DNA of 64,000 nt from Nitrosopumilaceae archaeon (GTDB lineage: Archaea > Thermoproteota > Nitrososphaeria > Nitrososphaerales > Nitrosopumilaceae): assembly GCA_965200155.1 (NCBI GenBank), contig CBDATR010000010.1, positions 192,001 through 256,000 on the forward strand. Reading direction: 5' to 3'. A program made the translations under genes and the position numbers. The notes beneath the pieces were generated by a model, which worked only from the letters and a program-made list of their open reading frames with translations, was not told the origin of the DNA and ran no database searches. Shown here in pieces: positions 18,130 to 37,909 of the stretch. The stretch's first letter is position 1. Every line of letters begins with the position of its first letter.

Positions 18130-18309
18130 CCTTGTAATGTGCAAGATCTTTCTCGGTGGCCGCAAGACGTAGGACAAGGCGCATCTTGCCCATGGCCTCT
18201 GCCTTGTAATGTGCAAGTTCTTTCTCGGTAGCCGCAAGTATTATGTCTCCACGTTTTATCTCTCGCTCATTCTCCTTTAATGTGCAAGTTCTTTCTTGGT
18301 AGACGCAAG
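18130..18309. CRISPR. CRISPR-like mini-array: 3 x ~37-bp repeat, 2 x 35-bp unique spacer, inside the IS66 transposase gene
   Basis: Repeat CCTTGTAATGTGCAAGTTCTTTCTCGGTAGCCGCAAG at 18130-18166, 18202-18238, 18274-18309; unrelated spacers 18167-18201 and 18239-18273; no cas genes in window. Confidence 0.55.
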
Positions 18310-18670
18310 GGTATCCTGAAGAAGCTTATTTTTTAGTTCCAATTCCTTATAGGACCGGCGCCTTCTCATTAGATTCTTATTGCAAATTTGATATTTAAGC
18401 AAAATATTGTCATACCAATCTATATCTTAGTGAATGATCAAAACACGTGAACTCATACGCATAAATTATAGTCATACGTAAATAAGTATGAATTTAATTA
18501 GTGCTTAATTTTTATTAATAATTATTTCATGACAATAATTTACCTTAATTTACACATGACAAATTGTGAGGATTATTTCTTATGCGACAATACGATTTTC
18601 GAGTGCGCGATTAGAAACCGTGAATTTATCGAGGCACAGATATATGAAGGCAAATTATGCAAAAAATACA

Positions 18671-19219
18671 ATGTCTACTGCATCACTGCGAAAGGATCAT
18701 GAGCTTATAGAAAAAGTTCTCAAGGCCATGAATGCTACAATACAATTACTGGAGTCAGGAAAGCGCGTACCAGAACAGATACTGAGCCAGACCGTTGACT
18801 TTGCAAAAAATTTTACTGATGCGTGCCATCATGCAAAAGAGGAAGAAGTACTGTTTCCCGCCCTGGAACGCACGGGCATGCCCACAAAGATGGGCCCCAT
18901 CGCGGTCATGCTTATGGAGCACCGTCAAGCCAGGGAACTGGCCCATAATATGGAGACAGGCATGGAGACGTACGTTCAGGACAATAATCCACAGGCGTTG
19001 CTAGATGCCATGAAACAATATGTCAGACACGTGACCGAACACCTGTGGAAGGAGAATAACCGCCTGTTTGTAATGGCCGAAGCGCGACTGCAGAATTCCT
19101 CGGATGTCATTACAAATATAGACAATGTTGAGCACAAACAGCTCAACGATATGGGAAAGAGTAGGACATATTATGAGAATCTGGTTACAGATATGAACAA
19201 AAGACTGAGCGATGTCTAG
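18671..19219 (+). CDS. Hemerythrin HHE domain protein
   Basis: DHELI, CHHAKEEEVLFP, EH, HLWKEN. Confidence 0.9.
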   Translation: MSTASLRKDHELIEKVLKAMNATIQLLESGKRVPEQILSQTVDFAKNFTDACHHAKEEEVLFPALERTGMPTKMGPIAVMLMEHRQARELAHNMETGMETYVQDNNPQALLDAMKQYVRHVTEHLWKENNRLFVMAEARLQNSSDVITNIDNVEHKQLNDMGKSRTYYENLVTDMNKRLSDV

Positions 19220-19252
19220 CACATTTACAGACAAACGCATTGTACGGATTTT

Positions 19253-19344
19253 GTATGAGTTCACGTCTTCCGGAATCTTATGCACAAATCACATTAACTG
19301 TCGCGATCAGTTATGCGTAAATTTAGACACAGGCGAACTCACAC
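19253..19344 (+). mobile_element. 92-bp MITE, copy 9 (inner TIR degenerate)
   Basis: Right end reads GCGAACTCACAC. Confidence 0.95.
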
Positions 19345-19978
19345 AAAAGAAATTCTGCGCCTATACCATTCTGGTAATTACATCAGTCAAGACCGGAGCC
19401 ATAATATGGACCAGTGATGCCTTTGCGGGAAGCACCCATGATATCACCATGCTCAAGGAGTTTGCGCAAAAGCTGGGGGCAATCTATGACGGCATGATGG
19501 GAAGAAATGATCTAAAAGTATGACTGCATTCAGACCTTGGATTCAAGGTAATCGAAAAAGAACTCCCAGGCATAATATTTGTCCAGGGAGTCAAGAAACC
19601 CAGGAATGGCAAGCTGTCCGATGATGAAAAGGAACACAACGCTACGGTGGGCAAGTCAAGATCAGCTGTGGAGCGTACCATAGGCAGGACGAAAATGGGA
19701 ACCAAAATGTCAACCGTATTCATCGGGACGATCGACGAGTTCTACCAGCAGTATCAGGCCATATGTGCTGATGTGAACCTGACCATAATGCGGCCTCAGA
19801 TAAGAATGGGAAAAGGAACCCTTTGGGTTATTGCCGGCACCGGGATAATTTCTGTTTTTAATATCGCAAAATACGGGGCACATTATGACTGCGCATAATT
19901 TTCTGATTTTTATCCAAAATCTTGTGTTTTACCGTTGTAATTCTGATCATACCGCATGTTAACCGGGAATGCTTTGCC
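19345..19978 (+). pseudogene. IS5/ISL2-type (DDE_Tnp_4) transposase C-terminal fragment plus IS end, cargo of the composite
   Basis: GSTHD...SDLGF...KKP...EKEHN...RSAVERTIG with an internal stop. Confidence 0.8.
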
Positions 19979-20070
19979 GTATGAGTTCACCTGTGTCTAA
20001 ATTTACGCACAACTGATCGCGACAGTTAATGTGATTTGTGCACAAGATTCCGGAAGACGTGAACTCATAC
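19979..20070 (-). mobile_element. 92-bp MITE, copy 10
   Basis: Consensus copy, reverse orientation. Confidence 0.95.
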
Positions 20071-20125
20071 CGGATTTTAGCTACCGCGAATGACTGGCGC
20101 CATACTTTGTATTGTCACCAAAGTT

Positions 20126-20500
20126 TCAGGGTTTTCGCATTATGGATGAAAAGCTATGAATCGCCTGTTCCATGGATTTTATTCCCAGTATGCGTGTTTG
20201 GGCGTACCATTTTAGGAAGATTTCATAGTTATCCAGATAAGCCATAGTTGTGTTGGTCCAGATATTCACAGATGTCTTGAACATCTCCTGTGCCGGTGTG
20301 TTATCAATTGTAAAACCGGCCTGCTCCAAGGCATAGACTGACTTGAAAAAATCATCTGCCACATGCGTGTATTCCCGGTAGATATCCGAATACATCTTGA
20401 TGTAGATTGGTATCTGTGAATCCATCTTCTTGAGTATACGCTTGCTACCGTCCCGCATTATATCGCAAGAAGTATCACTTGACATGTATATTTTAGCCAT
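20126..20500 (-). CDS. Hypothetical protein
   Basis: 124-aa ORF, no overlaps. Confidence 0.65.
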   Translation of the reverse strand: MAKIYMSSDTSCDIMRDGSKRILKKMDSQIPIYIKMYSDIYREYTHVADDFFKSVYALEQAGFTIDNTPAQEMFKTSVNIWTNTTMAYLDNYEIFLKWYAQTRILGIKSMEQAIHSFSSIMRKP

Positions 20501-20557
20501 TTTTGTCTATTAAATTATAGCTAAAACCCAAATATTTGACAACCGCGCCACTCCGGT

Positions 20558-21073
20558 CTAGAACGTCTGTTGCATATCGCTGCGTATCAAGTCTATCTTC
20601 TTGCGAAATGCCTTCTTTGCCAAGTCGTTATTTTTTAGGTTCATTACTCCGCCACAATTCCCGCACTTAAAGTCCAGTCCCAGCGTCTCCTCGAAAGTTA
20701 CCCGAGGGCAGTCATTACTGCCGCAATGATAGAATTGCGTGGAATTCTCATAATCCAGCCGCTGTTGGAGTCGCTCCATTATGTGACGCTTTTGGCTCTC
20801 GATGAATGTTTCCACCTCATCACGGCGAGTTCTCCAACGGTACACAAACCACCCCTTTCTCTCATCTTTGACGCGTATACCAGTTATCAGGGATTTCCCG
20901 AACAATCCATACAGTACCTTGCGCACCATGTTTATGCGCAGGCCGGTGGAGCTGGCTATCTCCTCATCGGTTGCATACTCGGTCTTTAAGAGTGACCGTG
21001 CCACCTTGAGGTACTCGTCACCACCGATCATCGCTGCTATACGAACAAAGGGGTCATCATACTTTCTTATCAA
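20558..21073 (-). CDS. tfe: Transcription factor E (TFIIE alpha-like)
   Basis: TDEEIA winged helix, GWFVYRW, zinc ribbon. Confidence 0.95.
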   Translation of the reverse strand: MIRKYDDPFVRIAAMIGGDEYLKVARSLLKTEYATDEEIASSTGLRINMVRKVLYGLFGKSLITGIRVKDERKGWFVYRWRTRRDEVETFIESQKRHIMERLQQRLDYENSTQFYHCGSNDCPRVTFEETLGLDFKCGNCGGVMNLKNNDLAKKAFRKKIDLIRSDMQQTF

Positions 21074-21099
21074 TCACTTCAGTACTTGGAGATATTATA

Positions 21100-21621
21100 T
21101 TAATCCGTTACTACACGCTTGCCCCTATCCTGCGGAATGATACGAAACACGCCTCCGGGCATCCGTGCATCCAACTGAGCGCCCTGCTGTATGCGATCCA
21201 GCAAGACAGCCAATGCTGCTATCTCAGAGTGTGGTTGGCTTCCGACCGATACGTTATAGTCCGCCATATCATATATTTCCCTGGGCACCTTGCCTGCACC
21301 TATTACCACCAGCATACGTTGCAGGCGCATCACACCAGATAGGACATGATTAAGCATCTGCCCGTACATGGTGAGATGTACGATGCCGTATGAGTCAGCT
21401 TTTTTGCGGCGTATGACGCCCCGTATATTGTCATCCAGTATTACCTGGAATTGCCCACCCCAATTGTGATTCACTGCCTGTACGGTGTCACGTATATCCG
21501 CGCTAGCCTCGCTCATGTATATGCAACGGGCACCAAAGGCCCTGGAGACCAGTGCTGCGTGAGTGGTTACACGATCGTCCCGTACCAGCCGCTGCCCCAG
21601 CCGGGCCACCTCTATTATCAA
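21100..21621 (-). CDS. trm56: tRNA (cytidine56-2'-O)-methyltransferase
   Basis: [25 protein letters not shown]; TTG start inferred. Confidence 0.9.
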
Positions 21622-22691
21622 TTTCCCTCCACGGCAGATACCAGTTGCCGCAATGATTGCAGACCCTGTCCGGTGACCGCGGAGATTGCCACCCACCGCT
21701 GTCTCTTTATGTCCAGTGTGTCAAGACATGCCTCCATATGGGGAATGGTGACTTTGTCTACCTTGTTCAGTGCAAAGACAAGCTTGGCGCGCTCTATGCC
21801 CAGCTGGTTTAGCGTGCTCATGCAGCTGCGATACTTTTTTTTCAGATTTGTCATATTGTCGCTTATATCCAGGACTACGATAATGGTGTCAGAGTATACC
21901 ATCTCCTCAAGAGTAGACCGGAATGCCTCTACCATATATGCGGGAAGCTTGTTGATGAATCCCACAGTGTCCGAAAGAAGGTATGTCGTGCCTTCTGCCT
22001 GGAATCGCCGTACTGTAGTGGAGAGGGTAGTAAAGAGATTCTCCCCCTGTTCCCGGTCTTCGCCGGTCAGGGCGTTGAATAGGGTGGTCTTGCCCGCGGA
22101 TGTATATCCCGCAAGGGATACAGTATGGAATCCCTGGCGCTTTCTCCCCTGCCGGTGCAACATACGCTGTTTGCCCGCCTTGGCTAGTTTGGCGCGGACC
22201 GAGGTCATACGATGCCGTATGTCATTGTAGTAAACATCCACCTCAAACTTACCTATCCCCATGAATCCCGGTTGCTCACCCATCTTGGCTAGACGGACCT
22301 TGTCCTTGGCACGTCCCGCCTCGTAGCGCATCTGCGCCAGTTTTACTTGTAGGCGCGACTCAGAGCTGGAGGCGCGCTTCTCGAATATGTCAAGTATGAG
22401 GGTCTCCCGGTCCAGGACGTTCCGGTGCAAACGGGAAGCCAGATTGTAATTCTGGCTGGGTCGCAGAACCTCGTCATATATTATCACGTCAGGGGTTAGC
22501 CTCTCGGCCAGATCATCCAGGCGCTCTACCATATACTCACTTATGCCATATTTGGGACGATCCAAAAATCGCTGGCGCATGATATGTGCAACCCCGTATC
22601 CGGCAGCATTGCAGAGAGCAACTGCTTCGTCCACCGCGTCCCGGCGGTCGTATGTGATTAGTATGGCAGAGCCCTCTTGTGTGACAGCCAT
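21618..22691 (-). CDS. hflX: GTPase HflX
   Basis: [22 protein letters not shown]. Confidence 0.95.
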
Positions 22692-22694
22692 GTT

Positions 22695-23348
22695 TCACGC
22701 CACCATGGTATCCAAGGGATGGATTTGGGCTATGGTGCGAGCTGCCAGCATGTCACGCTTTCCCCTCTGGTTACAGTTCCTGCTGCGAGAGCTTGTGTTA
22801 GCCTCATTTACAAACTCCAAATTATAGGGCGGCAGATCCTCCAGGGACAGCAGGGCTGCCAGCCGCCTGGCCGTATGCATGTCACCATTACCCACTCGCA
22901 CGGTCCGATATGAGGAGCCAGACCACCGCAGCATGACAGAGATGTATGATACCAGATGAGTATCAGAAAAGAACAGTACCTGTTCCACTTCTTGGCCCGC
23001 ATAGAATACTGCCACGCCCAGGAGCTTGCCGGGATCTATGCCTATTACCAGATGATCATCAAATGCATCGGCGCCACATCTGCTCAGGAGTGTAGCTAGG
23101 GCTATTCCGTATCCCATGGCTAGTTCATAATCATACATTACGCGTACAGTTGGCGGTACGGGAATAACCTCCTGCGGCGTGGTTAGTACGATATGACCGG
23201 AATAGTCATGCATCTGCAAAGGCACCAAGACATCATATTTTATGCCCATATGCGAGAGCCATTGTGTAAACTTGTAGTACGGCTTGGCGCGGGCCGTGGC
23301 TACCCCAATGCGATATTTTTCGATGTGGTTAATGATATGATTATTCAC
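22695..23348 (-). CDS. Hypothetical protein with RNase H-like (YqgF-like) C-terminus
   Basis: VIGIDPG...VNEANTS...DMLAA. Confidence 0.65.
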   Translation of the reverse strand: MNNHIINHIEKYRIGVATARAKPYYKFTQWLSHMGIKYDVLVPLQMHDYSGHIVLTTPQEVIPVPPTVRVMYDYELAMGYGIALATLLSRCGADAFDDHLVIGIDPGKLLGVAVFYAGQEVEQVLFFSDTHLVSYISVMLRWSGSSYRTVRVGNGDMHTARRLAALLSLEDLPPYNLEFVNEANTSSRSRNCNQRGKRDMLAARTIAQIHPLDTMVA

Positions 23349-23385
23349 GTTAGGTTAATAATTTTTACGCGTCTTAGCGAGATTT

Positions 23386-24377
23386 TCAATAGTACGAAAA
23401 GTCCGCTTAGGATCCGGCGTACAGTAGTTCAGATTGCACAAGCCAGATGGTAAAGAGAATAACAGAGGAATCAAGACAAAAAGAGGCGTTGCCACAACCA
23501 AAATAGCTCAAGACATGAGACAAGACACGTACGAAGATTGTGAACCAGAGAACGGGAACGACTCGAGTAAAGATGGGCAGGTCCATGATACCAATCACCG
23601 CCACCCAGATACGAATGGTAACTGAAGCATACAGCAAGGATCCCGCCGTAGTACGTATTGCAAAGAGGCTTAGACAGAATTACAATATATCGCGCAGTAT
23701 ATCACATAATGAAAAAGAACGGTACAGCAGGATCATCACATGCAAAATCAGAGTGGGTACGCTATGAGCGTAAATATTCCAATGCAATGTGGCACTGGCA
23801 TGCCATGAATGAGCGCTTCAAGGGACTGAATCTCAGATGATGCATCCACCCACCCGCTCCAGGAGTCTCCTAGCGGCGGCGCGCTTCAAGGGACTGAATC
23901 TCATAGATGATGCATCCAGGTGTATAGTCGGAGCGGCACTATTTGAGCATGCAACCTCAGAGAACGCCATTCTATTACTGAGACGGGCAATGAAACGATT
24001 CGGCGCCCCTGCATCTCGGATAACGGCGCGTGTTTCGTAGGACAATAAAAGGGCAAAAAGAACTGGAAACCCACTATTCTAGGAAGAACTGCTGGATCAA
24101 GACATCATACTAATCAATTCCAGACCATACCACCCGCAGACAAATGGCAAACTGGAGCGCGTCCATGGAATGATTGAGGATGAGATATGACATTATGACA
24201 GTCTCCGGGATTATGTTGACTACTACAATGAGAGAATGTTGCACTTCTCACTGGATATAGATAACGGCGAAACGCCGCTTCAGGAATAAAAAGGCGACCC
24301 AGACAATTAGGGCAAATGATGTAAAATGGATGGAGCGAGATACCAATGACTAGCGGACCGACTTTTCATACATTACA
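23386..24377 (+). mobile_element. Degenerate IS481-family element, copy 1
   Basis: WVRYERKYSNAMWH, IDDASR, YHPQTNGKLER motifs; ends ...ATTACA; 16-bp flanking direct repeat CGTCTTAGCGAGATTT. Confidence 0.85.
23813..23918. repeat. 36/38-bp direct repeat around a 32-bp unique filler
   Basis: GCGCTTCAAGGGACTGAATCTCA(TA)GATGATGCATCCA at 23813-23848 and 23881-23918; single copy in IS481 copy 2. Confidence 0.9.
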
Positions 24378-24450
24378 CGTCTTAGCGAGATTTAACGCCG
24401 GATACACGTCTAAATCAATAGAGTGTATCAGGGCGAATCTCTGCCACGTT

Positions 24451-24538
24451 TGGTGCGGGAGGCGGGATTCGAACCCGCGAACCCCTTAGAGACAGGGTCC
24501 TAAGCCCTGCGCCTTTGACCAGGCTTGGCAACTCCCGC
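24451..24538 (-). tRNA. tRNA-Leu(TAG)
   Basis: Cloverleaf with long variable arm, anticodon loop CTTAGGA, encoded CCA. Confidence 0.95.
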
Positions 24539-24901
24539 AGACTATGCTGGATGATGGTGAATTTATCTATTGGTGATTGGGTGTTACCAAACAGGAACAG
24601 AACTGATCGCATAAAGACAGATCACACGGATAACAACCGTCAAGCATAAGTTGCGTATGTAAAAATAGGTCACACCTTCCCGGTATCTCACAAAAGGGGT
24701 ATCCTAGGTTTTTATCTAGTCCAGGGTTAGCTTGCTTATAACAAAATTACGTCGATTAGTCTACTCCCGTCCATTTTGAGTCGTCCTCCCCTGACGCGCA
24801 CCTGTTATGCCCTCTGAGTGATGACTCCATATTCTTCATGTTAAGCGCCCTAAACGGCCACAATATCACACTTAAAGACGCATTTGGGAAAATGTTGCGT
24901 A

Positions 24902-25771
24902 ATGGTAGACCAGTCTACAATGAAGGGTTTTGGTGGGACAGAACGGGTGAACCATGATGCAAGCGATTTTTACTCCCGAAAGATGTTTTCTGGCATAGAT
25001 TCAGACCAGTCAGAGTATGATAACAATATTGGTCAGTACCGCAATACCATACTAAATCAGGATAGTGCAAGGCTGGGAATGATACCGGATTCATGCGTTC
25101 ATTTGATGGTGACCTCACCACCGTACAACGTAGGCAAGGACTATGATGATGATATCACGTTATCACAGTATCTGGAGATGTTAAATGATGTATTCAAGGA
25201 GACATTTCGAATATTGGTGAATGGCGGCCGCGCCTGCATCAATATAGCCAATGTGGGACGCAAGCCGTACATTCCACTGCACTCGTACATCATTGGAATA
25301 ATGTCAAAGATTGGTTTTCTGATGAGGGGAGAGATAATCTGGGAGAAGGGAGCCGGTGCAGGGGCGTCTACTGCATGGGGTTCCTGGATGTCCGCCACTA
25401 ATCCCACACTCAGGGATACACATGAGTACATACTGGTATTTTCAAAGGGAAAGTTTGGCAGGAAACGCGGAATCAATACTATAACCCGGGACGAGTTCCT
25501 GGATTATACAAAAAGTGTATGGTCGTTCAAACCGGAGAGCGCTAGAGCGCTGAATCACCCGGCACCGTTCCCGGTGGAATTACCATACCGGTGCATACAG
25601 CTGTATTCATTCCAGGGCGATGTTGTGTTCGATCCATTTTGCGGTTCCGGCACCAGCGCAATAGCGGCAATCCGGTCTGGTCGTGATTACCTGATGGCCG
25701 ACAAGGACAGCGAATATGTCATGACTGCAAAGAAACGAGTAGAAAGTGAAATGTTTTACATCTCAAATTAG
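24902..25771 (+). CDS. Site-specific DNA methyltransferase (N4-C/N6-A, beta class)
   Basis: TSPPY, HPAPFP, DPFCGSGT. Confidence 0.9.
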   Translation: MVDQSTMKGFGGTERVNHDASDFYSRKMFSGIDSDQSEYDNNIGQYRNTILNQDSARLGMIPDSCVHLMVTSPPYNVGKDYDDDITLSQYLEMLNDVFKETFRILVNGGRACINIANVGRKPYIPLHSYIIGIMSKIGFLMRGEIIWEKGAGAGASTAWGSWMSATNPTLRDTHEYILVFSKGKFGRKRGINTITRDEFLDYTKSVWSFKPESARALNHPAPFPVELPYRCIQLYSFQGDVVFDPFCGSGTSAIAAIRSGRDYLMADKDSEYVMTAKKRVESEMFYISN

Positions 25772-25999
25772 TCCAACTTGGGCCATTCCCATTTGTACTG
25801 GATTTGGATTGGTATTCGTCCCATTTGGTCTATGAGTCCATGGTTCAAACGTGTGCTCAGACTGTAATAGTCGGGCGTGGACAATACTCAGGGGGACTGC
25901 TGGTGCCAAGTGCACCATTTATGCATGCCGAGACGACCCAAACGGTTACGCAGACAGCTTCACAAGATTTTTAATCTGTAGTTACTTTCAAAGCAATAA

Positions 26000-26077
26000 G
26001 CCCTTGTAGTATAGCCCGGTCTAGAATTCGGCCCTGTCACGGCTGAGACGCGTGTTCAAATCCCGCCAAGGGCGCCA
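26000..26077 (+). tRNA. tRNA-Asp(GTC)
   Basis: GCCCTTG...CAAGGGC-G-CCA; anticodon loop CTGTCAC. Confidence 0.95.
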
Positions 26078-26871
26078 TAATCCATTACAGCGTATATCTG
26101 GTCTGCCACATCTTTATCGGCCGCGGCCACAAAGGATACCCTGGTACCGTAACCCAGGTCCGCATCCAGGGGTTTCTTGTATTCATCCAGAATCAAGCCG
26201 CCAGCCTCCTTTACCAAGAGGTATCCCGCGGCTACGTCCTGTATTCTTATCTTGTTGCGAATATCCACAAAGGCATCCAACAGTCCCGCAGAGAAATGAG
26301 CCATCTCCAAGGCATTGGCCCCCATATGCCTTATGTGACTGTTCTTTAGTAGCGGCTGTATACACCGTACCATCTGCGCGTCTACGCCGGAGAGATTAAT
26401 GCCGATTATGGTGTATCCGGATTCACCCCTGCCCGCCTGTATTGGCTTATCGTCAAGAAATGCACCGCCACCACTACTAGCCTTATAGGTATGGCCACTG
26501 TGCAAATCCTTTATGACCCCGGCTACCACACCGCTCAGCGCGCAACTGGTGGCAAATGCCAGTGAGCTGCAAAAGAACGGAAAACCCCGTACCGCATTTG
26601 CCGTGCCGTCTATCGCGTCCATTATGACATAACCCTGAGGATCCGGAGATAATTCTACCCTGCCACACTCCTCGCCCAGTACCACGCAGGGAAACTCCTT
26701 CTCTCGCAAAAAGTCCAGTACCACGCCCTCTGCAGTAACGTCTATGTTCTTGCTGATATCACCACCGGCCCCCCGGCCAAAATCGCCTCCCGCGTTGGCG
26801 GTACCGGCCATATCCTTGACACTATGATATATGAGATCCGACGCTTCCTGTAGGATTGATAGGGGCTCCAT
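26056..26871 (-). CDS. Inositol monophosphatase / FBPase family
   Basis: GEE, DAIDGTAN, DVAAG. Confidence 0.9.
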   Translation of the reverse strand: MEPLSILQEASDLIYHSVKDMAGTANAGGDFGRGAGGDISKNIDVTAEGVVLDFLREKEFPCVVLGEECGRVELSPDPQGYVIMDAIDGTANAVRGFPFFCSSLAFATSCALSGVVAGVIKDLHSGHTYKASSGGGAFLDDKPIQAGRGESGYTIIGINLSGVDAQMVRCIQPLLKNSHIRHMGANALEMAHFSAGLLDAFVDIRNKIRIQDVAAGYLLVKEAGGLILDEYKKPLDADLGYGTRVSFVAAADKDVADQIYAVMDYGALGGI

Positions 26872-26963
26872 TCAAGAGGATACATACAAGCAGGTAATTA
26901 ATCCAGCGATGACATATGGGTACTCCTCAAAAGAATAAAAGGTAAGACAGGCATCCGCATGAT

Positions 26964-29209: not shown

Positions 29210-29520
29210 GCTGGGTACAGATTAACATGAAGTTTGCCAGCGTCTGTATGATATGTAAGAAACGCCTAAGGGCAGGCGAGCCGGGCCTGTGGGCCAAGGG
29301 TGTGGGTGTAAAGCATGTTCAATGCGCCCAGGAGAGCGGCGCAACATGCATCATGTGTGGCAGTCCTGCCGGTTGCCAGCAGTGCTCTGTGTCAGAGGAC
29401 TGTGATTACAAGAATGTCTCCCTGTGCATATGCAGTAACTGTGAGGGTACAATTACCATAGCCAAGTATGGAATGGCCGCGGAGAAAAAGTTCCACGCCC
29501 TGAGTTCAGGCAAGGGCTAA
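29206..29520 (+). CDS. Cys-rich hypothetical protein
   Basis: Multiple CxxC; coupled start. Confidence 0.75.
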   Translation: MSWVQINMKFASVCMICKKRLRAGEPGLWAKGVGVKHVQCAQESGATCIMCGSPAGCQQCSVSEDCDYKNVSLCICSNCEGTITIAKYGMAAEKKFHALSSGKG

Positions 29521-29547
29521 ATTATACGCGCCGCAACAGAAATGTCA

Positions 29548-29621
29548 GGGTCTATGGCGCAGCCAGGTAGCGCACCGGACTTTTAATCCGGCTGTCGTGG
29601 GTTCGAATCCCTCTAGACCCG
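29548..29621 (+). tRNA. tRNA-Lys(TTT)
   Basis: CCGGA-CTTTTAA-TCCGG anticodon arm; GTTCGAATC. Confidence 0.95.
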
Positions 29622-29784
29622 CATCTATGCTCTTCCCAAGAGACACAAGTCGACATGCCATGTCGCAATAATGACCAAGGGATCATGCACATTATGTTCC
29701 CAGATTATACTTACTGTATATAGATAAAAAAGAATTATCATACTATGCGCATATTCTATATAGTATCACAGTCAATAAACAGGA

Positions 29785-30837
29785 ATGTCCGAGAAATACG
29801 AAACCCGTAAAATACAGTTTACCGGCAAGTCATCATATACAATATCCCTTCCAAAACCATGGATAGAGGACTTGGGACTGATGCAGGGGGACCTGGTTCG
29901 AATATACAGAAAGGGCTCCACTAACCTAGAACTGTATCCCCCCAATGTGAAGCCGCAAACACCACAGACTGAGGAAGCCACCATCGAGATACAACCCAAC
30001 GAGGAACCGGATGCCATCGGCCGCAAGCTTATCTCGCTGTACTTTATGGGATTCAGAATAATCAATATCAAGCCGCAGTCCGACAGACTGAGCCCGCACC
30101 ATCGCTTGCGCATAAAGGAGTCTGTCCGCCGCATGCTCATGGGCTCCGAGATAATATCAGACTCCTCGGATATGATAACTATTCAAGTACTGATCAATTT
30201 GGTGGAGCTCAATGTTGAGAGCGCCTTTAAGAGGATGGTACACTTGGCGAAGTCTGTCTCAAGGGATGCCCTCTTGGCAGTGCAGGAGAATAACCGGGAA
30301 CTGGCGAGGGAGGTAACTGACATGGACGACGAGATAGACCGGTTCAGTTTTTACATAATACGGCAGCTAAAGCTTGCCATACAGAGCGAACACATACTCA
30401 AGGAGGTGGGATTCCACAACGCTCGTGACTGCCTGGGATACCGGGTACTGGTCAAGAACATAGAGCGTGCAGGTGATCACGCAGTCATGATGGCCAAAGA
30501 CGTACTGGAATTCGACAAAAAAATAGACAAGGACGCCATTGCCGTACTGCAAGATATGAACGGCTTTGCTCTCTCTGTACTTGATGACGCCTGCCTGGCT
30601 CTGTTCAAGGCAGACTATATCCAGGCTGAGAACACCATCACAAAGGCCGCGCAGATAGCTCAGCACGAGAAGAACATTCAGGAAGTGACCGCATCTATAT
30701 GGGATAGCGAGATAGTATTCCGCATAAGACGCATAGCGGATAACATAAAGCGCATATCTGAGTATTCGGTTGACATTGCAGAGATAGTGCTAAACATGAA
30801 CGTAGAGAAGACGCTCAAGCAGAAAAGGATTGATTAA
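29785..30837 (+). CDS. phoU: Phosphate uptake regulator (AbrB plus PhoU domains)
   Basis: ETRKIQFTGKSSYTISLPK, DDEIDR, IERAGDHA. Confidence 0.9.
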   Translation: MSEKYETRKIQFTGKSSYTISLPKPWIEDLGLMQGDLVRIYRKGSTNLELYPPNVKPQTPQTEEATIEIQPNEEPDAIGRKLISLYFMGFRIINIKPQSDRLSPHHRLRIKESVRRMLMGSEIISDSSDMITIQVLINLVELNVESAFKRMVHLAKSVSRDALLAVQENNRELAREVTDMDDEIDRFSFYIIRQLKLAIQSEHILKEVGFHNARDCLGYRVLVKNIERAGDHAVMMAKDVLEFDKKIDKDAIAVLQDMNGFALSVLDDACLALFKADYIQAENTITKAAQIAQHEKNIQEVTASIWDSEIVFRIRRIADNIKRISEYSVDIAEIVLNMNVEKTLKQKRID

Positions 30838-31017
30838 TAAGTCTCATTTTCAGGGATGCGGAAAAGCGGCACATTTATTTAAATTTTAGTATGTTTTAGT
30901 ATACAATTCAATACCCTTTACTTCTGGAATAAAATTTACTTACAAATATGCCTAATTTTTTGAATAAATTAGGGATCTAATGTTAAATATGGTGTGAATC
31001 TACCATATACTATCAAA

Positions 31018-31323
31018 ATGACTTGTAAAGGAATTTGCACGAGATACAAGGCCCAAAAACCAGTAGGTACAGGCCGGTATGCATCAGGCCAACGGCGATG
31101 CCAGATATGCGAGATCTTCATAAAATGGGAGGGTCTCTGGTGTCCGTGCTGCGGGTACAGACTTCGAACAAAACCAAGAAACCTAAAGTACAAAGCAAAG
31201 CTGCGCGCCAGAGTGGAATCGATAGAAGCTCAAGAAGCCCAAAATGCAGAAGTGACCAGTTCAGGAAATGAATGGGTCCCAGACAGCCAGGCTCAAGAGG
31301 CAGAAGTACCGGTACAAAAGTAG
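31018..31323 (+). CDS. Small zinc-finger protein
   Basis: CKGIC...RCQIC...CPCCG. Confidence 0.8.
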   Translation: MTCKGICTRYKAQKPVGTGRYASGQRRCQICEIFIKWEGLWCPCCGYRLRTKPRNLKYKAKLRARVESIEAQEAQNAEVTSSGNEWVPDSQAQEAEVPVQK

Positions 31324-31667
31324 TGGCATTGGACCCTCCACGCGGATTACAAGAGGTGGATGTCTGTGTGGAGGACCGCATTTTTTCCTTACGCATAATA
31401 TCATACCAGAATGGATGTTTTGTGTCAGTAAGTGAGGGCGATGCCAGGATAGGCTCACTTATAGTATCCTTGTACAACGGTTCCACGCCGGTGACTACAC
31501 AAGTGATACCTGCCAAGTACGAATCGCTGTTTATGAGGCTGGTGTCAGAGAAGCTGGCCGTACGAACCAACGGCGTGGCCATAGTTAGCGTAAGCATAAG
31601 GCAGGACATAACCGCAGCCATCTCCAAGGAGATAATGCACGAGATAGATAGATTATCCTTAGGTTAA
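31323..31667 (+). CDS. Hypothetical protein (possibly proteasome assembly chaperone-like)
   Basis: ORF coupled to upstream stop; YQNGCFVSVSE. Confidence 0.6.
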   Translation: MALDPPRGLQEVDVCVEDRIFSLRIISYQNGCFVSVSEGDARIGSLIVSLYNGSTPVTTQVIPAKYESLFMRLVSEKLAVRTNGVAIVSVSIRQDITAAISKEIMHEIDRLSLG

Positions 31668-31672
31668 GGTAG

Positions 31673-32992
31673 TTACAAATAGTCGTCTAGGCGCGTCTTT
31701 TCAAGTCCCGGAATGCGGGCTATCTCAAACCCCTCAGGTCGCTTGTCTAGGGGTCGCGTGGCATCAATACCCAACTTGGCGGTTTTGAGATTAGCCTGAT
31801 CGCTGGACGGATCCAGGCTGGAGCCACGAACACCAGATATGACATACATGTCCTTATCCGCCTGGAAACGGGTGGCCATGGCATATTCTATTGACGCGGC
31901 ATCATCGGGGTTGATGTCATTATCTACAACTACAACCTGCTTAAGTGACCGATGCGCCTCAAAAGTTCGCTGTATTATATGGCGAACATCGGTCTTGGCA
32001 TCCTTTTTTATGCATACTACTGCATGCAACCAGTTGCACCCTCCCGAACTCAGCGTCACTGACTTTACATGAGGTATATCGCCTAGGGATACATCAATCT
32101 TGGACTCCGCAGGCATGCCCATGAGTAGCCTATGCTCGCCATAACCTGACAGTATGTCATGAAATATTGGGTTATCCCGATGGTAGACATTCTCCACTTC
32201 CAGAACCGGCTGATCCCGCGCGTGGTCATATGTTTGTAGCATCTCCACCATCCACTCCTTTCCTGTGACATCACACAGTATGCGGCCCTCTATTACAATC
32301 TCGGAGTGTGCGGGTACCTCCAGTCCGCTCCAATGCAGTGTTGACATGACAAGATTGCCCCCCAGTATAGCGTTTGATATATTCATCTCCGGCTCGCCCC
32401 ATGCAGCCTGGTATGCGCCAGCTACCAGTATGGCAGGATGCACACCTACTGATATGGCCACCCGTAGATCCTCGCCATGGTCCCGGGCATCAGTATAGCA
32501 TCGATGTAGATGCCTCCCCTCAACCATGCGCATGGTAAAGCGGTACGGGCTCAGCGGCATCATTCGGTGGAATGATGTGTTCTGCGTCTTGGTTTGGGGA
32601 TTTGCTGTAAACACCAGCGACGATGTAATGAATGGTCCGGACTCCTTCTCAAAATGTGTGACTATGGGCATATCCCCTATGTCATTGGAGTGGTTATCCA
32701 TGAAGGCTCCCGGTTGTTTGGTTTGGGGCTTCCGGGAGCCGGTTATGGCCCTGTGCATAGTTTGATGAATATGTCCGGCATCAGTGCCAAGCGCCAATGC
32801 AAAACGGCTGCGGGTTCCCAGCAGGTTGGAGACTATCATGTACTTGCTGCCGTCTACGTTCTCGAATAGTACGGCATTACCGTCTTGTGCACGGGCAGTT
32901 ATCGCCGCCACCTCGTATACGGGAGACACAGAACGGCTAATGTGCATCACTTCCTGGTCTATCTCGTTCAGATACTCCCTAAGACCGATCAA
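31673..32992 (-). CDS. UbiD-family decarboxylase
   Basis: GPFITS, SFHRM, EIVIEG, SSLDPS, KLGIDAT. Confidence 0.9.
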   Translation of the reverse strand: MIGLREYLNEIDQEVMHISRSVSPVYEVAAITARAQDGNAVLFENVDGSKYMIVSNLLGTRSRFALALGTDAGHIHQTMHRAITGSRKPQTKQPGAFMDNHSNDIGDMPIVTHFEKESGPFITSSLVFTANPQTKTQNTSFHRMMPLSPYRFTMRMVEGRHLHRCYTDARDHGEDLRVAISVGVHPAILVAGAYQAAWGEPEMNISNAILGGNLVMSTLHWSGLEVPAHSEIVIEGRILCDVTGKEWMVEMLQTYDHARDQPVLEVENVYHRDNPIFHDILSGYGEHRLLMGMPAESKIDVSLGDIPHVKSVTLSSGGCNWLHAVVCIKKDAKTDVRHIIQRTFEAHRSLKQVVVVDNDINPDDAASIEYAMATRFQADKDMYVISGVRGSSLDPSSDQANLKTAKLGIDATRPLDKRPEGFEIARIPGLEKTRLDDYL

Positions 32993-33202
32993 AATGACAT
33001 CACTCCAGATACTACTGGACGCCTTGTAATTATATCATCAGGTGCAAGCGAATGGTTGTGAGTCCTCGAGGTTGGCGCAAAACAGAACCGCGAGGATTGA
33101 CCGGAAACTTGTATTTTTTTAGTGCACCAGACATGGTTTTTCCGTAAGCGACATGACTGGAATATCATGCCGTTAATATGCAGGACATCATACCGGCAGT
33201 AT

Positions 33203-33676
33203 ATGACAGAGCCCGCAGAGAAGATAAAGAATGTGATAAAGGTTCTGTACGGGACCGGAGTTGCACGATACGTACCCAAGGATATTCGGTTCGAATACTC
33301 CAGAACGGGCAGGATTCGAAGCGTGTACAAGGACACGACGCTATTATGTACGCTGAGGCCTGACGGGGGCCTGGCACTTGGCATACCGCTCGCCCAGATG
33401 TTGCTTAGTAGCTCGCGCTTTTTGGAGTCCTGCGTAGAGATAAGTGCAGATGCAGTTCCTTTTGTTAAGGAGGGACGTAGCGTCTTTGCCAAACACGTAG
33501 TCAGATGTGGCAGTAATGTTGCAGTATCTGCAGATACGCCGGTCATATACCAAGGCAGGGTGATTGCCATAGGCAGGGCCGTACTCGGCGCCAGTATGCT
33601 AGCAGGATGCAGTAGGGGAGTGGCCATACGTGTTCGTAAGGGCTTAAAAGGAAGAGAGGTAATGCCAGAGACATGA
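33203..33676 (+). CDS. PUA-domain protein (archaeosine TGT C-terminal-like)
   Basis: SRTGRIR, LCTLRPDG, GRSVFAKHV, GVAIRVR. Confidence 0.8.
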   Translation: MTEPAEKIKNVIKVLYGTGVARYVPKDIRFEYSRTGRIRSVYKDTTLLCTLRPDGGLALGIPLAQMLLSSSRFLESCVEISADAVPFVKEGRSVFAKHVVRCGSNVAVSADTPVIYQGRVIAIGRAVLGASMLAGCSRGVAIRVRKGLKGREVMPET

Positions 33677-34017
33677 TGCGCGGAAGGAGAGGGCGCGACG
33701 TGCGTCGCAGGATGGACAAGATGGGCATGGATATGACCAATATAGACGACGTAAGGGAGGTAATCATACGCACAGAGTCCAAGGAGTATGTAATTACAAA
33801 TCCGGCAGTGAATCGAATGGATAACAAGGAGAGTACAATATTCATGGTAACCGCCAATGGATACGAGGAGAGAGAACCGGAGGTACCCACATATCCGGAG
33901 GAAGATATAGAGATGATATGTATGAGAGCCAACGTCGACAGGGATGCAGCCATATCGGCACTGACAGAGTCTGACGGGGAGCTGGCTACGGCATTATTGC
34001 GGCTCCAGTCCAGCTGA
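33673..34017 (+). CDS. nac: Nascent polypeptide-associated complex protein
   Basis: RRMDKMG, VREVII, UBA-like C-terminus. Confidence 0.9.
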   Translation: MMRGRRGRDVRRRMDKMGMDMTNIDDVREVIIRTESKEYVITNPAVNRMDNKESTIFMVTANGYEEREPEVPTYPEEDIEMICMRANVDRDAAISALTESDGELATALLRLQSS

Positions 34018-34050
34018 ATGATTTAATTAGCGGCGCGCCGCACATGGTCC

Positions 34051-34389
34051 TTGATGATGTCAGAGTCAAAGGTAAGTAGTATCATGGTCGCGCTCAGGGA
34101 TCTTGAGAATGACATGGACTCGCTTAACTCCACGGTTGCAGATATGAAGCGTCAGATGACCATACAAGTACAGAAAGAGACGGATGAATTATACGAAAAG
34201 ACCCGAGAGATGGCCAACAAACAGGCAGAGAAGATAATAGAGGAGGCTCGCGCCAAAGCCAAGGACCAAGCCGCCAAGATCACCCAGGAAGCCGAGACCC
34301 GCCTGAGCACTATTAGTACCAAGATAGACGCGGGTTTTGAAGATGCGGTGTATATTGTTCTTGAGAGCATACTAAAGCCCGGCCAGTGA
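34051..34389 (+). CDS. Coiled-coil protein, A-type ATPase subunit H-like
   Basis: AEKIIEEARAKA helical pattern. Confidence 0.6.
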   Translation: MMMSESKVSSIMVALRDLENDMDSLNSTVADMKRQMTIQVQKETDELYEKTREMANKQAEKIIEEARAKAKDQAAKITQEAETRLSTISTKIDAGFEDAVYIVLESILKPGQ

Positions 34390-34511
34390 TATTGAACGTG
34401 TGAGATGCGCGTTTTACCCAATCATTGTAATTAAAGGCATAAAGTATGATTCAGACCGCCGGATGACTCAGCGTGTATTTGACTATGCATTGCCACGGCA
34501 GCAAAAGCGTA

Positions 34512-35948
34512 TCACTCCCATCCATGCCACATTTTGGGATCTCGCGTTACTTCAGAGTTGGTCTTGGACTTGCCCACACCTATAGTTGTTATTATAACTG
34601 ATACCATTATGATAAAGAATACTATCTGGGAGTATACGGCACCATTCTCTAATCCCAGCGTAATGGGAAAGGTTGCCAGGACAGCCGCGGCCAGACCACG
34701 GGGAATCATGGTCTGAGTCACCCTTTTGTCCAGATCAGTGAACTTGGTAGTCATTGTGGCCTTGACTATAAGTGACCGGCCAAAGTATATGGCAACGGTA
34801 ATCAGTATGGCAAAGACAATGTACTCCAGCCTGCCCAGGGTGGCCATCAGCCCGACAAAGACAAAGAAGAATGAGCGAACTAAGAATGTGAGCTGGTTAT
34901 GGGTGGGATCATCATGCTCTATGTCACGCAGTTTGAGCCGAAGCCATTTGGAGAGCTGTCGCTTATTGCCAAGCATTAGGCCAAAGACCAATGCAGTCAG
35001 GGCGCCGGACTCGCCCAATGTTTGTGCCAAGAAGAACAGTACGAACAGTATGGCCAACGTAAGCATGTAGACATGCTGGGTGTTGGCCAGACGGGTAGTT
35101 ATGTAAAGCCATGGTATTCCAACTCCCAGGCCCAGAACCAGGCCCACCAGAACGGCGCGGCCCATCATGTTCCCCAGCGTGTCCATATCCAGGCCACCCT
35201 GCAGTACCGCCTCAAACATTATGAACGCCACTATGGTGGCAAGTATGTCGGTAAGGGCTGATTCAAAGTTGAGTACGGACTTGGCATCCTGGGACAGTTC
35301 AAGATTGCGAACCAGTCCAAATACAATTGCAGAGCTGCTTCCGCCTACAATTGAGCCCAGCAATATACTCTCCAGCAGACCCCATCCTAGAATGTAGTGT
35401 GCCCCCGCGGCCACCAACACTACAGATATCACAAAGCCGCCAACCACCAACGCGGCGGTAACATGAATTGTGTGGCCCAGGCGCCGCAAATCTGTTCCCA
35501 ACCCTCCATCAAACATGATAATTATCAGGGCCAGTGCGGCAAAGTAGGGGACTATCTCCAATACTGCCTGAATCTTGACTATTCCCAGTACCGGACCCAG
35601 TACCACGCCCAGTAGCATCAAGAATACCACTTCCGGAATGCCCGTCTTTCGAAAGAATGCCTCACCCATCACTCCCGCAAATATTACCACGCCCGCGGCC
35701 AGGAACAGTACGTGAACTGCAGCTATTGGTACATCAGGAATACCAAGGACAGATATATACGAGGATAACTCCGCATTCATTCGACCCACCCAATCGGAGA
35801 CGGACTCGTTCAGCGGTGCTAACACACCCAAATTCTCCTCCAAGTAACTTAGGACAAAAAGTAATTGTGGGTGCATTAGCATGTATGGTAAAAAATGTAT
35901 TAAACCGACTTGGTGCATTAATTTCTCCCCGGCGCGGGTATCCGTCAC
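34512..35948 (-). CDS. Cation:proton antiporter (CPA1)
   Basis: MFDGG, FESALTD, PRGLAAAVL; many TM helices. Confidence 0.9.
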   Translation of the reverse strand: MTDTRAGEKLMHQVGLIHFLPYMLMHPQLLFVLSYLEENLGVLAPLNESVSDWVGRMNAELSSYISVLGIPDVPIAAVHVLFLAAGVVIFAGVMGEAFFRKTGIPEVVFLMLLGVVLGPVLGIVKIQAVLEIVPYFAALALIIIMFDGGLGTDLRRLGHTIHVTAALVVGGFVISVVLVAAGAHYILGWGLLESILLGSIVGGSSSAIVFGLVRNLELSQDAKSVLNFESALTDILATIVAFIMFEAVLQGGLDMDTLGNMMGRAVLVGLVLGLGVGIPWLYITTRLANTQHVYMLTLAILFVLFFLAQTLGESGALTALVFGLMLGNKRQLSKWLRLKLRDIEHDDPTHNQLTFLVRSFFFVFVGLMATLGRLEYIVFAILITVAIYFGRSLIVKATMTTKFTDLDKRVTQTMIPRGLAAAVLATFPITLGLENGAVYSQIVFFIIMVSVIITTIGVGKSKTNSEVTRDPKMWHGWE

Positions 35949-36119
35949 ATCTTGCGCCTTACTGGCATGCCGTAAATGACTCCACCCGACAATAGTGCAG
36001 CCCCCTATTATGAAATAATATCATGTGTGGAATCGCGGTGTTGTATGCAGGGGGGCAACTGTTGTGTTCAATCAGGCATTACAAGAGTGGATGCACAAAG
36101 ATAGGCTGTTGTAAAATAG

Positions 36120-36191
36120 TGGACCGGGGGGGATTTGAACCCCCGACATCCACGTTGCGAACGTGGCGTTATACCCCTAAACCACCGGCCC
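36120..36191 (-). tRNA. tRNA-Ala(CGC)
   Basis: CCACG-TTCGCAA-CGTGG anticodon arm. Confidence 0.95.
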
Positions 36192-36263
36192 TCTCACTCG
36201 TAAATTATCTACCTTTATTTATTCGCAAAACCTCCAAAACATCATTCCCATGGCGAGGGCATC

Positions 36264-37658
36264 ATGACAGTAGATATGGTGATAGTAGATTCTCATGTGG
36301 TATTCCCACAGGGCATAGTCGACAAGAATATAGTAATAGACGAGGGAAGAATAGTCGGTCTTACTACAGATGTTCCCGCATGTGACCAAAAGGTGCGGGG
36401 GGATGGTTTGCTGTCAGTACCCGGTCCCATTGATCCCCATGTTCATTATGGCGTATATTCTTCCATAGACAAGGCAGCGGAGACGGAATCACACGCAGCT
36501 GCCATTGGAGGCATTACTACCATGATGCGAATGATGAGGTTGTGGGAACCATTCTCATCAGGACTTCAGCGCCAACTTGATGCCTCGGCCAACACGCACT
36601 ACATAGACTATACTGCACATGCGTCAATCTTCACACACCGGCAAATATCCGAGATGGAATACTGTGCAGAGAGAGGGGTGGCATCCTTCAAGATATACAT
36701 GAATCTGGGCGGCGAAATAGGACATGTCTATATGGATATGCCACCATATTCCACCGAACTTTGTGAAGATAGTGTAGATGTGACCGATGATATAGTGGAG
36801 GAGACTATTAGGGTAGCCGCGAATATGGGTTGCCCCGTATTAATTCATGCAGAGGACTATGAATCATGCGAGTGTGGCATGAAGGAGGCCAAAAAAGAGA
36901 AGCAAGACGGACTGGCTGCGTGGTCCAAGAGCAGGGATCCCCATTATGAGGCAAAGGCAATAAAAAAGGCATGCCGGTTTGGACGCAAATATGGCTGCGT
37001 GCTATACTTTGTGCACATAGGATCCCAAGTTGCACTGGACCAGATCATGGCAGAGCGCCAATTGGGGACAAGCATACGCGTGGAGAGTTGCCCGCACTAC
37101 ATGGTACTCTCCCATGAAAACAGAAACGATCATCTGGCCAAGGTGATGCCACCCATACGTGCCAATTCCGATAATAATTCGGTCTGGAGTGCAGTGAGCC
37201 AGAATCGTATAGATACCATAGGTACAGACCATGTTGCCAACCGACTGGCACGAAAAGTGGGCTCTGATGTCTGGACATCGTTGGCCGGGTTTCCGGGGAT
37301 TGGGACGATGATCCCAATCCTGCTAAGCGAGGGCGTAAATCGTAACAGAATATCCCTAGAGCAGTTCATCAGGTTGACCAGTGTAAATACGGCAAAGATC
37401 TTCTCCATGTATCCAAAAAAAGGATCATTGGAGGCAGGTACGGACGCAGACATATCCATGCTAGACCTGAAACTGGAGCGAACAGTCACAGCAGATATGT
37501 TCGGAGGGTTCTCTGATTATTCTCCGTATGAGGAATTGTGTCTGCGCGGTTGGCCAGTAAGAACTATTGTGCGAGGGTCTGTGATTGCCGAAGATTTTTC
37601 CGTGGTGGGGAAACGGGGTCACGGAAAATTAGTGTCAAGACCGGATACATGTATATGA
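36264..37658 (+). CDS. pyrC: Dihydroorotase / cyclic amidohydrolase family
   Basis: DPHVH, GGITT, FKIYM, PPIR, GTDH, GTDAD. Confidence 0.8.
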   Translation: MTVDMVIVDSHVVFPQGIVDKNIVIDEGRIVGLTTDVPACDQKVRGDGLLSVPGPIDPHVHYGVYSSIDKAAETESHAAAIGGITTMMRMMRLWEPFSSGLQRQLDASANTHYIDYTAHASIFTHRQISEMEYCAERGVASFKIYMNLGGEIGHVYMDMPPYSTELCEDSVDVTDDIVEETIRVAANMGCPVLIHAEDYESCECGMKEAKKEKQDGLAAWSKSRDPHYEAKAIKKACRFGRKYGCVLYFVHIGSQVALDQIMAERQLGTSIRVESCPHYMVLSHENRNDHLAKVMPPIRANSDNNSVWSAVSQNRIDTIGTDHVANRLARKVGSDVWTSLAGFPGIGTMIPILLSEGVNRNRISLEQFIRLTSVNTAKIFSMYPKKGSLEAGTDADISMLDLKLERTVTADMFGGFSDYSPYEELCLRGWPVRTIVRGSVIAEDFSVVGKRGHGKLVSRPDTCI

Positions 37659-37715
37659 AATACAAAGACGGTATTGACAGGGGAAACGGGGTCACGGAAA
37701 ATTAGTGTCAAGACC
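37607..37715. repeat. Perfect 36-bp direct repeat around a 37-bp unique filler
   Basis: GGGGAAACGGGGTCACGGAAAATTAGTGTCAAGACC at 37607-37642 and 37680-37715. Confidence 0.95.
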
Positions 37716-37730
37716 TCTACCCACGAATAG

Positions 37731-37909
37731 GTATGAGTTCACGTGTTTTGATCACATAATATGATAGAATGCATCCCAGTTTTTTAATTATAATTGCATT
37801 CTGGCAGCAACCTCGTTCATTACAGAAAGGCCCTGAGCCCTCCATGTCTGAACACATGTGGACATGCGGCGCATGGCCCTTTCACCACCCTTTATCTGGT
37901 CACTAATTT
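37731..37909 (-). mobile_element. IS66 element end remnant
   Basis: Near-identical to ~16414-16592, including the TIR. Confidence 0.9.

Follow-up and report, generated by a model that had tools for sequence, protein, structure and literature searches.

The window analysed here is a stretch of 64,000 nucleotides (nt) from the assembly of a Nitrosopumilaceae archaeon (G000:C10:192001-256000, where G000 is this assembly and C9, C10, C24 etc. are its contigs). It contains three loci at which a piece of local sequence stands in two or three copies separated by short fillers. Two of these loci lie in insertion sequences (IS), namely an IS66-family transposase pseudogene and an element with an rve integrase, and the third lies at the 3' end of an amidohydrolase gene. 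Here, we describe these duplications and their counterparts across the genome, and relate them to the organism's own CRISPR array and to the genes that add spacers to it. The features of the three loci, in window coordinates, are:

18130..18166, locus 1, copy 1 of the 37-nt target, within the N-terminal region of a pseudogenised IS66-family transposase
18167..18201, locus 1, filler 1, 35 nt, the old filler 'F1' common to many IS66-family copies
18202..18238, locus 1, copy 2 of the target, 95% identical to copy 1
18239..18272, locus 1, filler 2, 34 nt, 'F2', common to several IS copies
18273..18309, locus 1, copy 3 of the target, 81% identical to copy 1
23813..23848, locus 2, copy 1 of the target, 2 nt shorter than copy 2, within an element that encodes an rve integrase (IS481/IS3-like)
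23849..23880, locus 2, filler of about 32 nt, read by eye
23881..23918, locus 2, copy 2 of the target, identical to site A of the rve-IS in its unmodified form
36264..37658, plus strand, amidohydrolase (dihydroorotase-like) gene with a PF01979 match, its terminal codons swapped for filler-encoded residues
37607..37642, locus 3, copy 1 of the target (36 nt), coding for the C-terminal GKRGHGKLVSRP
37643..37679, locus 3, filler, 37 nt, without a match in the assembly or an exact match in the viral collection
37680..37715, locus 3, copy 2 of the target, a perfect match (100%) to copy 1, at a spacing of 73

At locus 1, three occurrences of the 37-nt stretch follow one another at spacings of 72 and 71 nt, and the two fillers between them (35 and 34 nt) have unrelated sequences. 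Elsewhere in the genome, the IS66-family element has an intact copy, which matches PF03050. The longest open reading frame (ORF) of the locus 2 element matches PF00665 (rve). Gap-free detection yields merely a 23-nt pair at spacing 68 there, because copy 1 of what is by eye a 38-nt unit has lost 2 nt, and from its sequence the locus appears to be a decayed event. The original prediction, that local stretches of 36-38 nt flank a spacer-sized filler at all three loci and that the duplicated stretches are mutually unrelated, agrees with what we see, while its period of about 70-73 nt fits loci 1 and 3 but not locus 2. It had also placed no cas1 in the window, correctly, as the sole Cas1 match of the assembly sits on contig C9.

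We scanned the whole 2.38-Mb assembly (51 contigs) for all direct repeats 30-150 nt apart. Outside the native CRISPR array, with 30 nt and 90% identity set as minima, the scan counts 7, 33, 19, 8 and 7 pairs at periods 71-75, and these 74 pairs are far above chance, since the other periods between 40 and 150 hold a mean of 1.49 pairs per period and a maximum of 7. With relaxed limits (periods of 68-78, lengths of 28-46 and an identity of 0.85 or more), the scan returned 84 pairs, from which 13 were dropped by hand as parts of longer tandem or protein-coding repeats or as IS-terminal repeat structures with a repeated 'filler' (C8:1862; C9:12517; C10:347755, 347801 and 347832; C12:2392; C22:20699 and 46844; C29:837; C38:1674; C40:6293 and 6595; C43:12266). 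Three loci in the window had been taken to imply many genome-wide, and the curated set indeed holds 71 pairs at 65 loci, with 64 distinct fillers and 51 distinct target sequences. The 71 do not include window locus 2 or three IS66 copies whose period is 66 nt, as these did not pass the filters.

The lengths of these events are narrowly distributed, in keeping with the sharp peak that had been anticipated, with duplications of 36-37 nt, fillers of 35-37 nt and periods of 72-73. Of the duplications, 22 measure 36 nt, 32 measure 37 nt and 7 measure 38 nt, so that 54 of the 71 fall at 36-37 nt, against 36 nt for the native repeat. The period is 72 in 32 pairs, 73 in 18, 74 in 8, 75 in 6 and 71 in 5, and lies between 71 and 75 in 69 of 71, as in the native array; the apparent filler length is 34-37 nt in 59. 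Copies are perfect in 49 pairs and differ in the other 22, and 59 of the 65 loci carry one filler each.

The organism, from sponge metagenomes, is an ammonia-oxidising archaeon, with 1437.6 bits to the archaeal small-subunit ribosomal RNA model and an archaeal amoA gene, and the events are confined to contigs of archaeal-like guanine-plus-cytosine (GC) content. About 25 short contigs at 35-41% GC (e.g. C4, C15, C26, C28), compared with 45-51% GC contigs, are without an ectopic event; some of them contain microsatellites, such as (CA)n at C26:1-102, and these low-GC contigs may be foreign to the archaeon. Events lie in or near repeated DNA at 36 of 65 loci, compared with 157 of 600 random points (odds ratio 3.5), and part of this excess is inheritance of events borne by IS. 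The genome is itself repeat-rich, those 157 random points being the ones within about 270 nt of DNA present in at least three copies.

Contig C9 holds a CRISPR-Cas locus that is type I-G by its gene content, and that supplies the array and the cas1/cas2 genes which had been expected of the organism. The fusion of Cas4 and Cas1 (Cas4g/Cas1g, or Cas4/1) matches NF049935 cas4g_cas1g over its full length with 710.7 bits, against a cut-off of 560, and keeps the nuclease and integrase motifs conserved in 11 homologues; Cas2 is intact (TIGR01573, 35.4 bits against a cut-off of 24.5). After a leader follows the native array (C9:71011-92087), with 289 repeats of 36 nt, of which 287 are identical and the leader-distal one is degenerate. 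Its 288 spacers measure mostly 37 nt (101), 36 (85) or 38 (63), with 16 of 35 and 15 of 39 nt, giving periods of 72 in 84 cases, 73 in 101 and 74 in 63. The ectopic events and the native array share this ruler of a repeat-length duplication and a spacer-length insert. The far side of the array encodes Cas3g (TIGR02621, 709 bits) accompanied by a Cas3-extension protein (NF049934), Csb2 (Cas5/6; TIGR02165, 284.5) and Csb1 (Cas7g; TIGR02570, 72.8). A search for Cas8g/Csx17 (TIGR04113) found no match in G000 or in the relatives G005, G006 and G008, and a match in the genome G001, and the subunit may be divergent or lost in G000. Directly upstream of csb1, where its gene would be expected, lie IS5-like transposase fragments (C9:99400-100300), and farther upstream are the anti-phage genes DUF1156 and DUF499 and a DrmD-like helicase. 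Across the whole assembly, which is 87.6% complete, the search for Cas1 returned one match, the C9 Cas4g/Cas1g.

We therefore regard the events, with high confidence, as off-target integrations by the organism's own type I-G adaptation complex of the Cas4/Cas1 fusion and Cas2. The original prediction of an integrase with a ruler of about 37 bp and relaxed specificity that seeds arrays draws support from the lengths, the Cas1 locus, the sources of the fillers and the empty alleles. In the mechanism that we propose, Cas4/1-Cas2 would capture a fragment of about 36 nt, and the two 3' ends of this prespacer would attack a target outside CRISPR on its opposite strands, at points 36-37 bp from each other. 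Once the single-stranded gaps are repaired, the target would be duplicated around the insert, as happens to the CRISPR repeat in normal acquisition. The ectopic 'repeats' all being different, the inserts should escape guide-RNA processing and yield no CRISPR RNA (crRNA), so that inserts derived from the genome itself would be tolerated, and insertions would accumulate in this genome, rich in IS, as mutations that are neutral or slightly harmful.

The fillers behave as captured spacers. A full-length match of at least 94% elsewhere in the assembly, with flanks unlike the event's own repeat, exists for 31 of the 64 distinct fillers, 23 of them at 100%, whereas none of the 288 native spacers has such a match (Fisher p = 7e-28, computed with 32 fillers). 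The number of sources went from 32 to 31 when the self protospacer of F1 was rejected as a truncated copy of the same IS event; the statistics for the PAM (protospacer-adjacent motif) as well as for protospacer positions use n=32, with the F1 source still included. Templating of the fillers from adjacent DNA would speak against capture, and the sources were found on other contigs or at least 36 kb away, so the fillers were not copied from their surroundings. For F2, the source protospacer is probably G000:C24:21285-21319, which is 100% identical to the version of F2 at C10:6462. Self and non-self fillers are not separated by GC content (50.1% vs 47.4%, p = 0.46). Three source protospacers lie in the window, all with 100% identity:

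13388..13422, minus strand, source protospacer, 35 nt, of the filler at G000:C24:326707
33674..33709, minus strand, source protospacer, 36 nt, of the filler at G000:C24:237593
51524..51562, plus strand, source protospacer, 39 nt, with the 5' flank TTC, of the filler at G000:C34:37402

The filler at C25:4797-4831 and native spacer 58 have 26 nt in common at an 11-nt offset, and the two would therefore be separate captures of the same DNA, one that is absent from the assembly; their common 26-mer has no exact match in the viral collection or the metagenome contigs.

A shared PAM had been proposed as a further mark of spacer origin, and this holds in part. TTN, the PAM reported for the I-U/I-G Cas4/1 fusion (PMC6547450; here and below, statements on published work refer to the accessible parts of the sources), is enriched, with 11 of 32 protospacers compared with 13% of random positions (p = 0.0017), but the protospacers that carry it are a minority. 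The weakness of the signal suggests that many ectopic inserts come from fragments unvetted by the Cas4 domain. The self protospacers are also unevenly placed, 17 of 32 lying on contig C10, which is 23% of the assembly (p = 2e-4), spread over 28-479 kb. As C10 carries the sole Cdc6/Orc1 match (G000:C10:298701-298961), spacer capture may favour origin-proximal DNA. Two causes may underlie the excess of self DNA over the native array: self-targeting spacers may be purged from the native array by autoimmunity while ectopic ones are harmless for want of a processable repeat, or canonical and off-target integration may draw on different fragment pools. Since the native array is without a self-matching spacer, interference would work or have worked; defective interference as a reason for the persistence of self inserts was rejected, Csx17 being unmatched also in three relatives with the same system.

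Target choice is relaxed, not random. Both ends of the targets carry a weak inward-read motif, two-fold symmetric and also present in the native repeat. Among 76 half-sites from unique 36-37-nt targets, T stands at +3 in 40, G at +4 in 33, A or C at +5 in 55, and G or C at +11 in 61 and at +12 in 57, while T at -3 is rare; both ends of the native repeat have T3, C5 and G/C at 11-12. A motif model trained on 35 ectopic targets, with the IS hot spots left out, was compared with a background of 300,000 random positions. The native leader-proximal repeat with its leader scores 9.5 bits, reached by 5e-5 of the random positions, and the median native repeat falls in the top 0.18%, the IS66 site in the top 0.05% and site A of the rve-IS in the top 0.1%. 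Compared directly with the native repeat, ectopic targets agree with it on average at 12.9 of 36 positions, and random 36-mers at 11.4 (p = 2e-6). A repeat conserved among the ectopic units, such as a functional CRISPR array needs, was not found among the 51 different target sequences.

Several observations weigh against the attribution to the type I-G complex. The period mode is 72 in the ectopic events and 73 in the native array (p = 0.016), and duplications of 37 nt are more frequent than a strict 36-nt ruler with chance extension allows (chi-square p = 2e-4). The published Cas4/1 fusion picks TTN efficiently, but TTN is found here at merely about one third of protospacers, and RTA (ATA or GTA) directly adjoins 9 of 64 protospacer sides. 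Site B of the rve-IS is the site used most often, with 5 independent fillers, but the motif model gives it -6.1, no better than 87% of random positions. In the relative G005, a type I-G system is present together with an array of 128 repeats, but the sampled 400 kb contain no event, and the system is therefore not sufficient. The link between enzyme and events is drawn from matching lengths and motifs in sequence, and a second Cas1 may lie in the unassembled part of the genome. Concerning the lengths, spacer-side integration in type I-G is reported to be 60-70% correct, compared with 80-90% at the leader side (PMC10504553), and this imprecision fits a slop of +/-1 nt and the excess of 37-nt duplications. 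Selection for reading frame was rejected as the cause of the 72-nt excess, the in-frame share being 9 of 18 in long ancestral ORFs and 26 of 47 elsewhere, and no domain defect of Cas4/Cas1 that might relax its specificity was seen, the invariant columns of 12 homologues being kept in G000. By rough estimate, ATA or GTA stands next to protospacers several times as often as expected.

The unassembled 12% of the genome, the weak use of a PAM and the off-motif site B would also suit another enzyme of similar stagger, be it a casposase, an unassembled second Cas1 or some other integrase. We consider this quite improbable, as the assembly holds one Cas1-family match, the motif of the ectopic sites singles out the native type I-G repeat, and one filler overlaps a native spacer. 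Furthermore, the 64 fillers, each of about 36 nt, are unrelated to one another and share no ends or inverted repeats, which excludes a transposon, and among them we found neither the conserved element, nor the defined ends, nor the short fixed target duplication of a transposon, IS or casposon, the duplication being 36-37 nt.

The IS elements provide the empty alleles that integration at these sites had led one to expect: 42 of the 55 loci with the IS66-family site are unoccupied, and so are 80 of the 85 with site B of the rve-IS. The other 13 IS66-family loci hold two to four copies of the site and, by eye, six different fillers, while the five occupied site-B loci hold five different fillers; real sequence hot spots exist beside the enrichment near repeated DNA. 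F1 is present, by eye, in ten IS66-family copies as 35-nt and 29-nt variants, and F2 is always on the same side of it. Two of the four private fillers are stacked on the F2 side of F1, in the four-repeat array at C24:500844-501097, so that three successive additions were all made at one end. With the 3' end of the site oriented like that of the native repeat, this growth end is the leader-proximal one, a leader-like polarity that is suggestive only, as three additions would show it by chance in about 1 of 12 cases. Since fillers are common to many copies, the element must have kept transposing with its nascent array, and several occupied copies retain a long open frame (503 and 549 codons). 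ORFs reach 500 codons or more in 8 of the 55 IS66-family copies, while nearly all ORFs in the about 85 copies of the rve-integrase IS are shorter than 150 codons.

The events also alter genes. In nine relatives, the alignment to the amidohydrolase stops at residue 459-460 of 464, and the C-terminal motif occurs once in two relatives translated at this end, compared with twice in G000; the site is thus empty in relatives. An IS terminal sequence of about 20 nt, seen by eye, occurs at window 18436-18460 and 37731-37760 in opposite orientations; the former copy ends the IS66-family element of locus 1, and the latter begins about 15 nt past locus 3, so that the original 3' end of the amidohydrolase gene runs into an IS. 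Genome-wide, 18 loci lie in stop-to-stop ORFs of at least 150 codons, of which 7 stay open, usually with 24 codons added, and 11 are truncated, including that of an Mrr-type nuclease. On C9, the junction between the cas4/1 stop and the cas2 start was struck twice and is triplicated by two ectopic spacers (C9:70400-70587). Copy 1 keeps the cas4/1 stop and copy 3 keeps the cas2 ribosome-binding site and TTG start, leaving both genes intact, and the adaptation operon was probably struck by its own product.

The growth of IS66-family arrays at one end to up to four repeats, their spread to 13 of 55 copies and the match of half of the fillers to host genes could also be read as signs of function, with the mini-arrays being either IS-borne guide arrays that borrow the host effector, as is thought for virus-borne mini-arrays, or regulatory elements. 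This appears very unlikely, considering that the 51 targets are unrelated, bear only a weak likeness to the native repeat and so give the Cas6-like Csb2 no shared feature to recognise, that 59 of the 65 loci have a single filler, and that 11 of the 18 events in long ORFs truncate the frame.

Relatives and sequencing runs bear on the reality of the DNA. G006, a single-contig genome of the same genus with a type I-G system and a Cas4/1 that is 66% identical, has 5 distinct events in the 800 kb sampled, one of them, by eye, in two copies of a repeat. In G010, which belongs to another genus and has no Cas4/1 match, we found 0 events in the 400 kb sampled. Long runs of 72-75-nt coding repeats in G006 (C1:875000-895000 and 1123000-1132000) mimic the CRISPR-like period, and automated scans must therefore filter out protein repeats. 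Runs from two studies, labelled as sponge metagenome or as a coded organism, contain the window. In all four runs assessed, from the 2 studies, the amidohydrolase gene is covered by a 3955-nt contig that breaks off at 37636, after the first 30 nt of copy 1; in our reading, and with no spanning read, this happens because contigs built from 31-letter words break at a 36-mer that is present twice.

Chimeric joins by the assembler, or another sequencing artefact, might be suspected in a metagenome bin of 51 contigs, the more so as the run contigs break at repeats and no single one bridges a whole event. The probability of this is exceedingly small, because an assembler has no reason to produce the geometry of 36-37 and 35-37 nt at 65 loci, 22 of the 71 pairs have non-identical copies, fillers are shared, apart from point differences, by several IS copies, runs of two studies break at the same base, and the single-contig G006 has such events too. 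Replication template-switching or microhomology-mediated repair with a templated filler, which could copy sequence from elsewhere in the genome, is practically negligible, as it predicts broad lengths and mostly nearby templates, against a peak five periods wide, the distant sources described above and a half of the fillers without any source in the genome.

Nivala, Shipman and Church reportedly found in 2018 that 'non-canonical' Cas1-Cas2 integration in Escherichia coli creates neo-CRISPR loci. As told by citing papers (10.1101/148544, PMC7054753, PMC11788318), off-target integration in E. coli spawns neo-CRISPR, and the likeness is close, with a spacer-sized insert outside the array, a duplicated target of repeat length and the possible seeding of new arrays. 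The E. coli events were rare, arose in culture under over-produced Cas1-Cas2 and belong to type I-E, whereas the present ones occupy 65 loci in one wild archaeal assembly with a type I-G system and its Cas4 fusion, self DNA is the source of half of the inserts, and IS have carried some of the nascent arrays along as they spread. The evidence for off-target integration in natural genomes has been called 'circumstantial', for two other species (10.1101/148544). In vitro, Cas1-Cas2 of Pyrococcus furiosus integrates into repeat-like off-target sites (PMC6698737), and there, as here, off-target events reveal elements that the integrase recognises. That work used a plasmid in the test tube and a host of type I-A/I-B/III (PMC6698737), whereas our sites are chromosomal and inherited, and are enough for a half-site model.

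The system shares with published type I-G (formerly I-U) adaptation the Cas4/Cas1 fusion, Cas2 and the TTN PAM (PMC6547450, PMC10504553). The published type I-G work concerns integration into an array or a leader-repeat plasmid, and in the accessible part of PMC10504553 the term 'off-target' appears 0 times. Mini-CRISPR arrays on viruses and mobile elements likewise have one or few spacers between two repeats, but those repeats are 'identical or very similar' to host CRISPR repeats (PMC8616872), whereas here they are the coding sequence of the mobile element. The 'ectopic' acquisition of Streptococcus thermophilus, in which a spacer is also added away from the leader-proximal repeat, takes place at an internal repeat of the array and not elsewhere in the genome (PMC7999890). 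A literature search that covered few subscription journals and no supplements did not turn up a natural genome reported with dozens of off-target events, a description of off-target sites for type I-G, or a case of IS spreading nascent arrays. The finding is an extension of known off-target integration and not a new mechanism.

Off-target spacer integration has been proposed as an origin of new CRISPR arrays and as a hidden cost of adaptive immunity. The support for this in the accessible literature consisted of over-expression experiments and a few circumstantial natural cases, and this genome supplies dozens of natural events together with empty alleles, source protospacers and a native array for comparison. 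It becomes possible to test how the type I-G integrase recognises DNA, using the half-site model with its two-fold symmetry, what amount of self DNA is taken up ahead of its removal by selection, at what rate the genes of immunity cause mutations in the host that carries them, and whether nascent arrays are able to ride on transposons. For annotators, the data carry the warning that two-repeat 'questionable CRISPRs' in such genomes may be integrase scars and not arrays.

Taken together, we lean somewhat towards a wider reading of these data, in which the CRISPR integrase would be a continuing endogenous mutagen and a source of new arrays. It would have struck at least 65 non-CRISPR loci, including its own cas4/1-cas2 junction twice, and truncated ORFs, and the IS66 arrays would have grown at one end and spread by transposition. 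The inserts, escaping interference, would form an unselected record of capture, about half of it self DNA and biased to the contig with Orc1/Cdc6, while the native array would have been purged of self. If this is true, such inserts are a natural record of raw capture by the adaptation machinery.

One further repeat in the window is of another kind. At 39060-39190, inside a minus-strand ORF, a G-rich unit of about 41 nt stands in three tandem copies at spacings of 42 and 48 nt, and this is an ordinary coding tandem repeat that is not related to the duplication and filler events.

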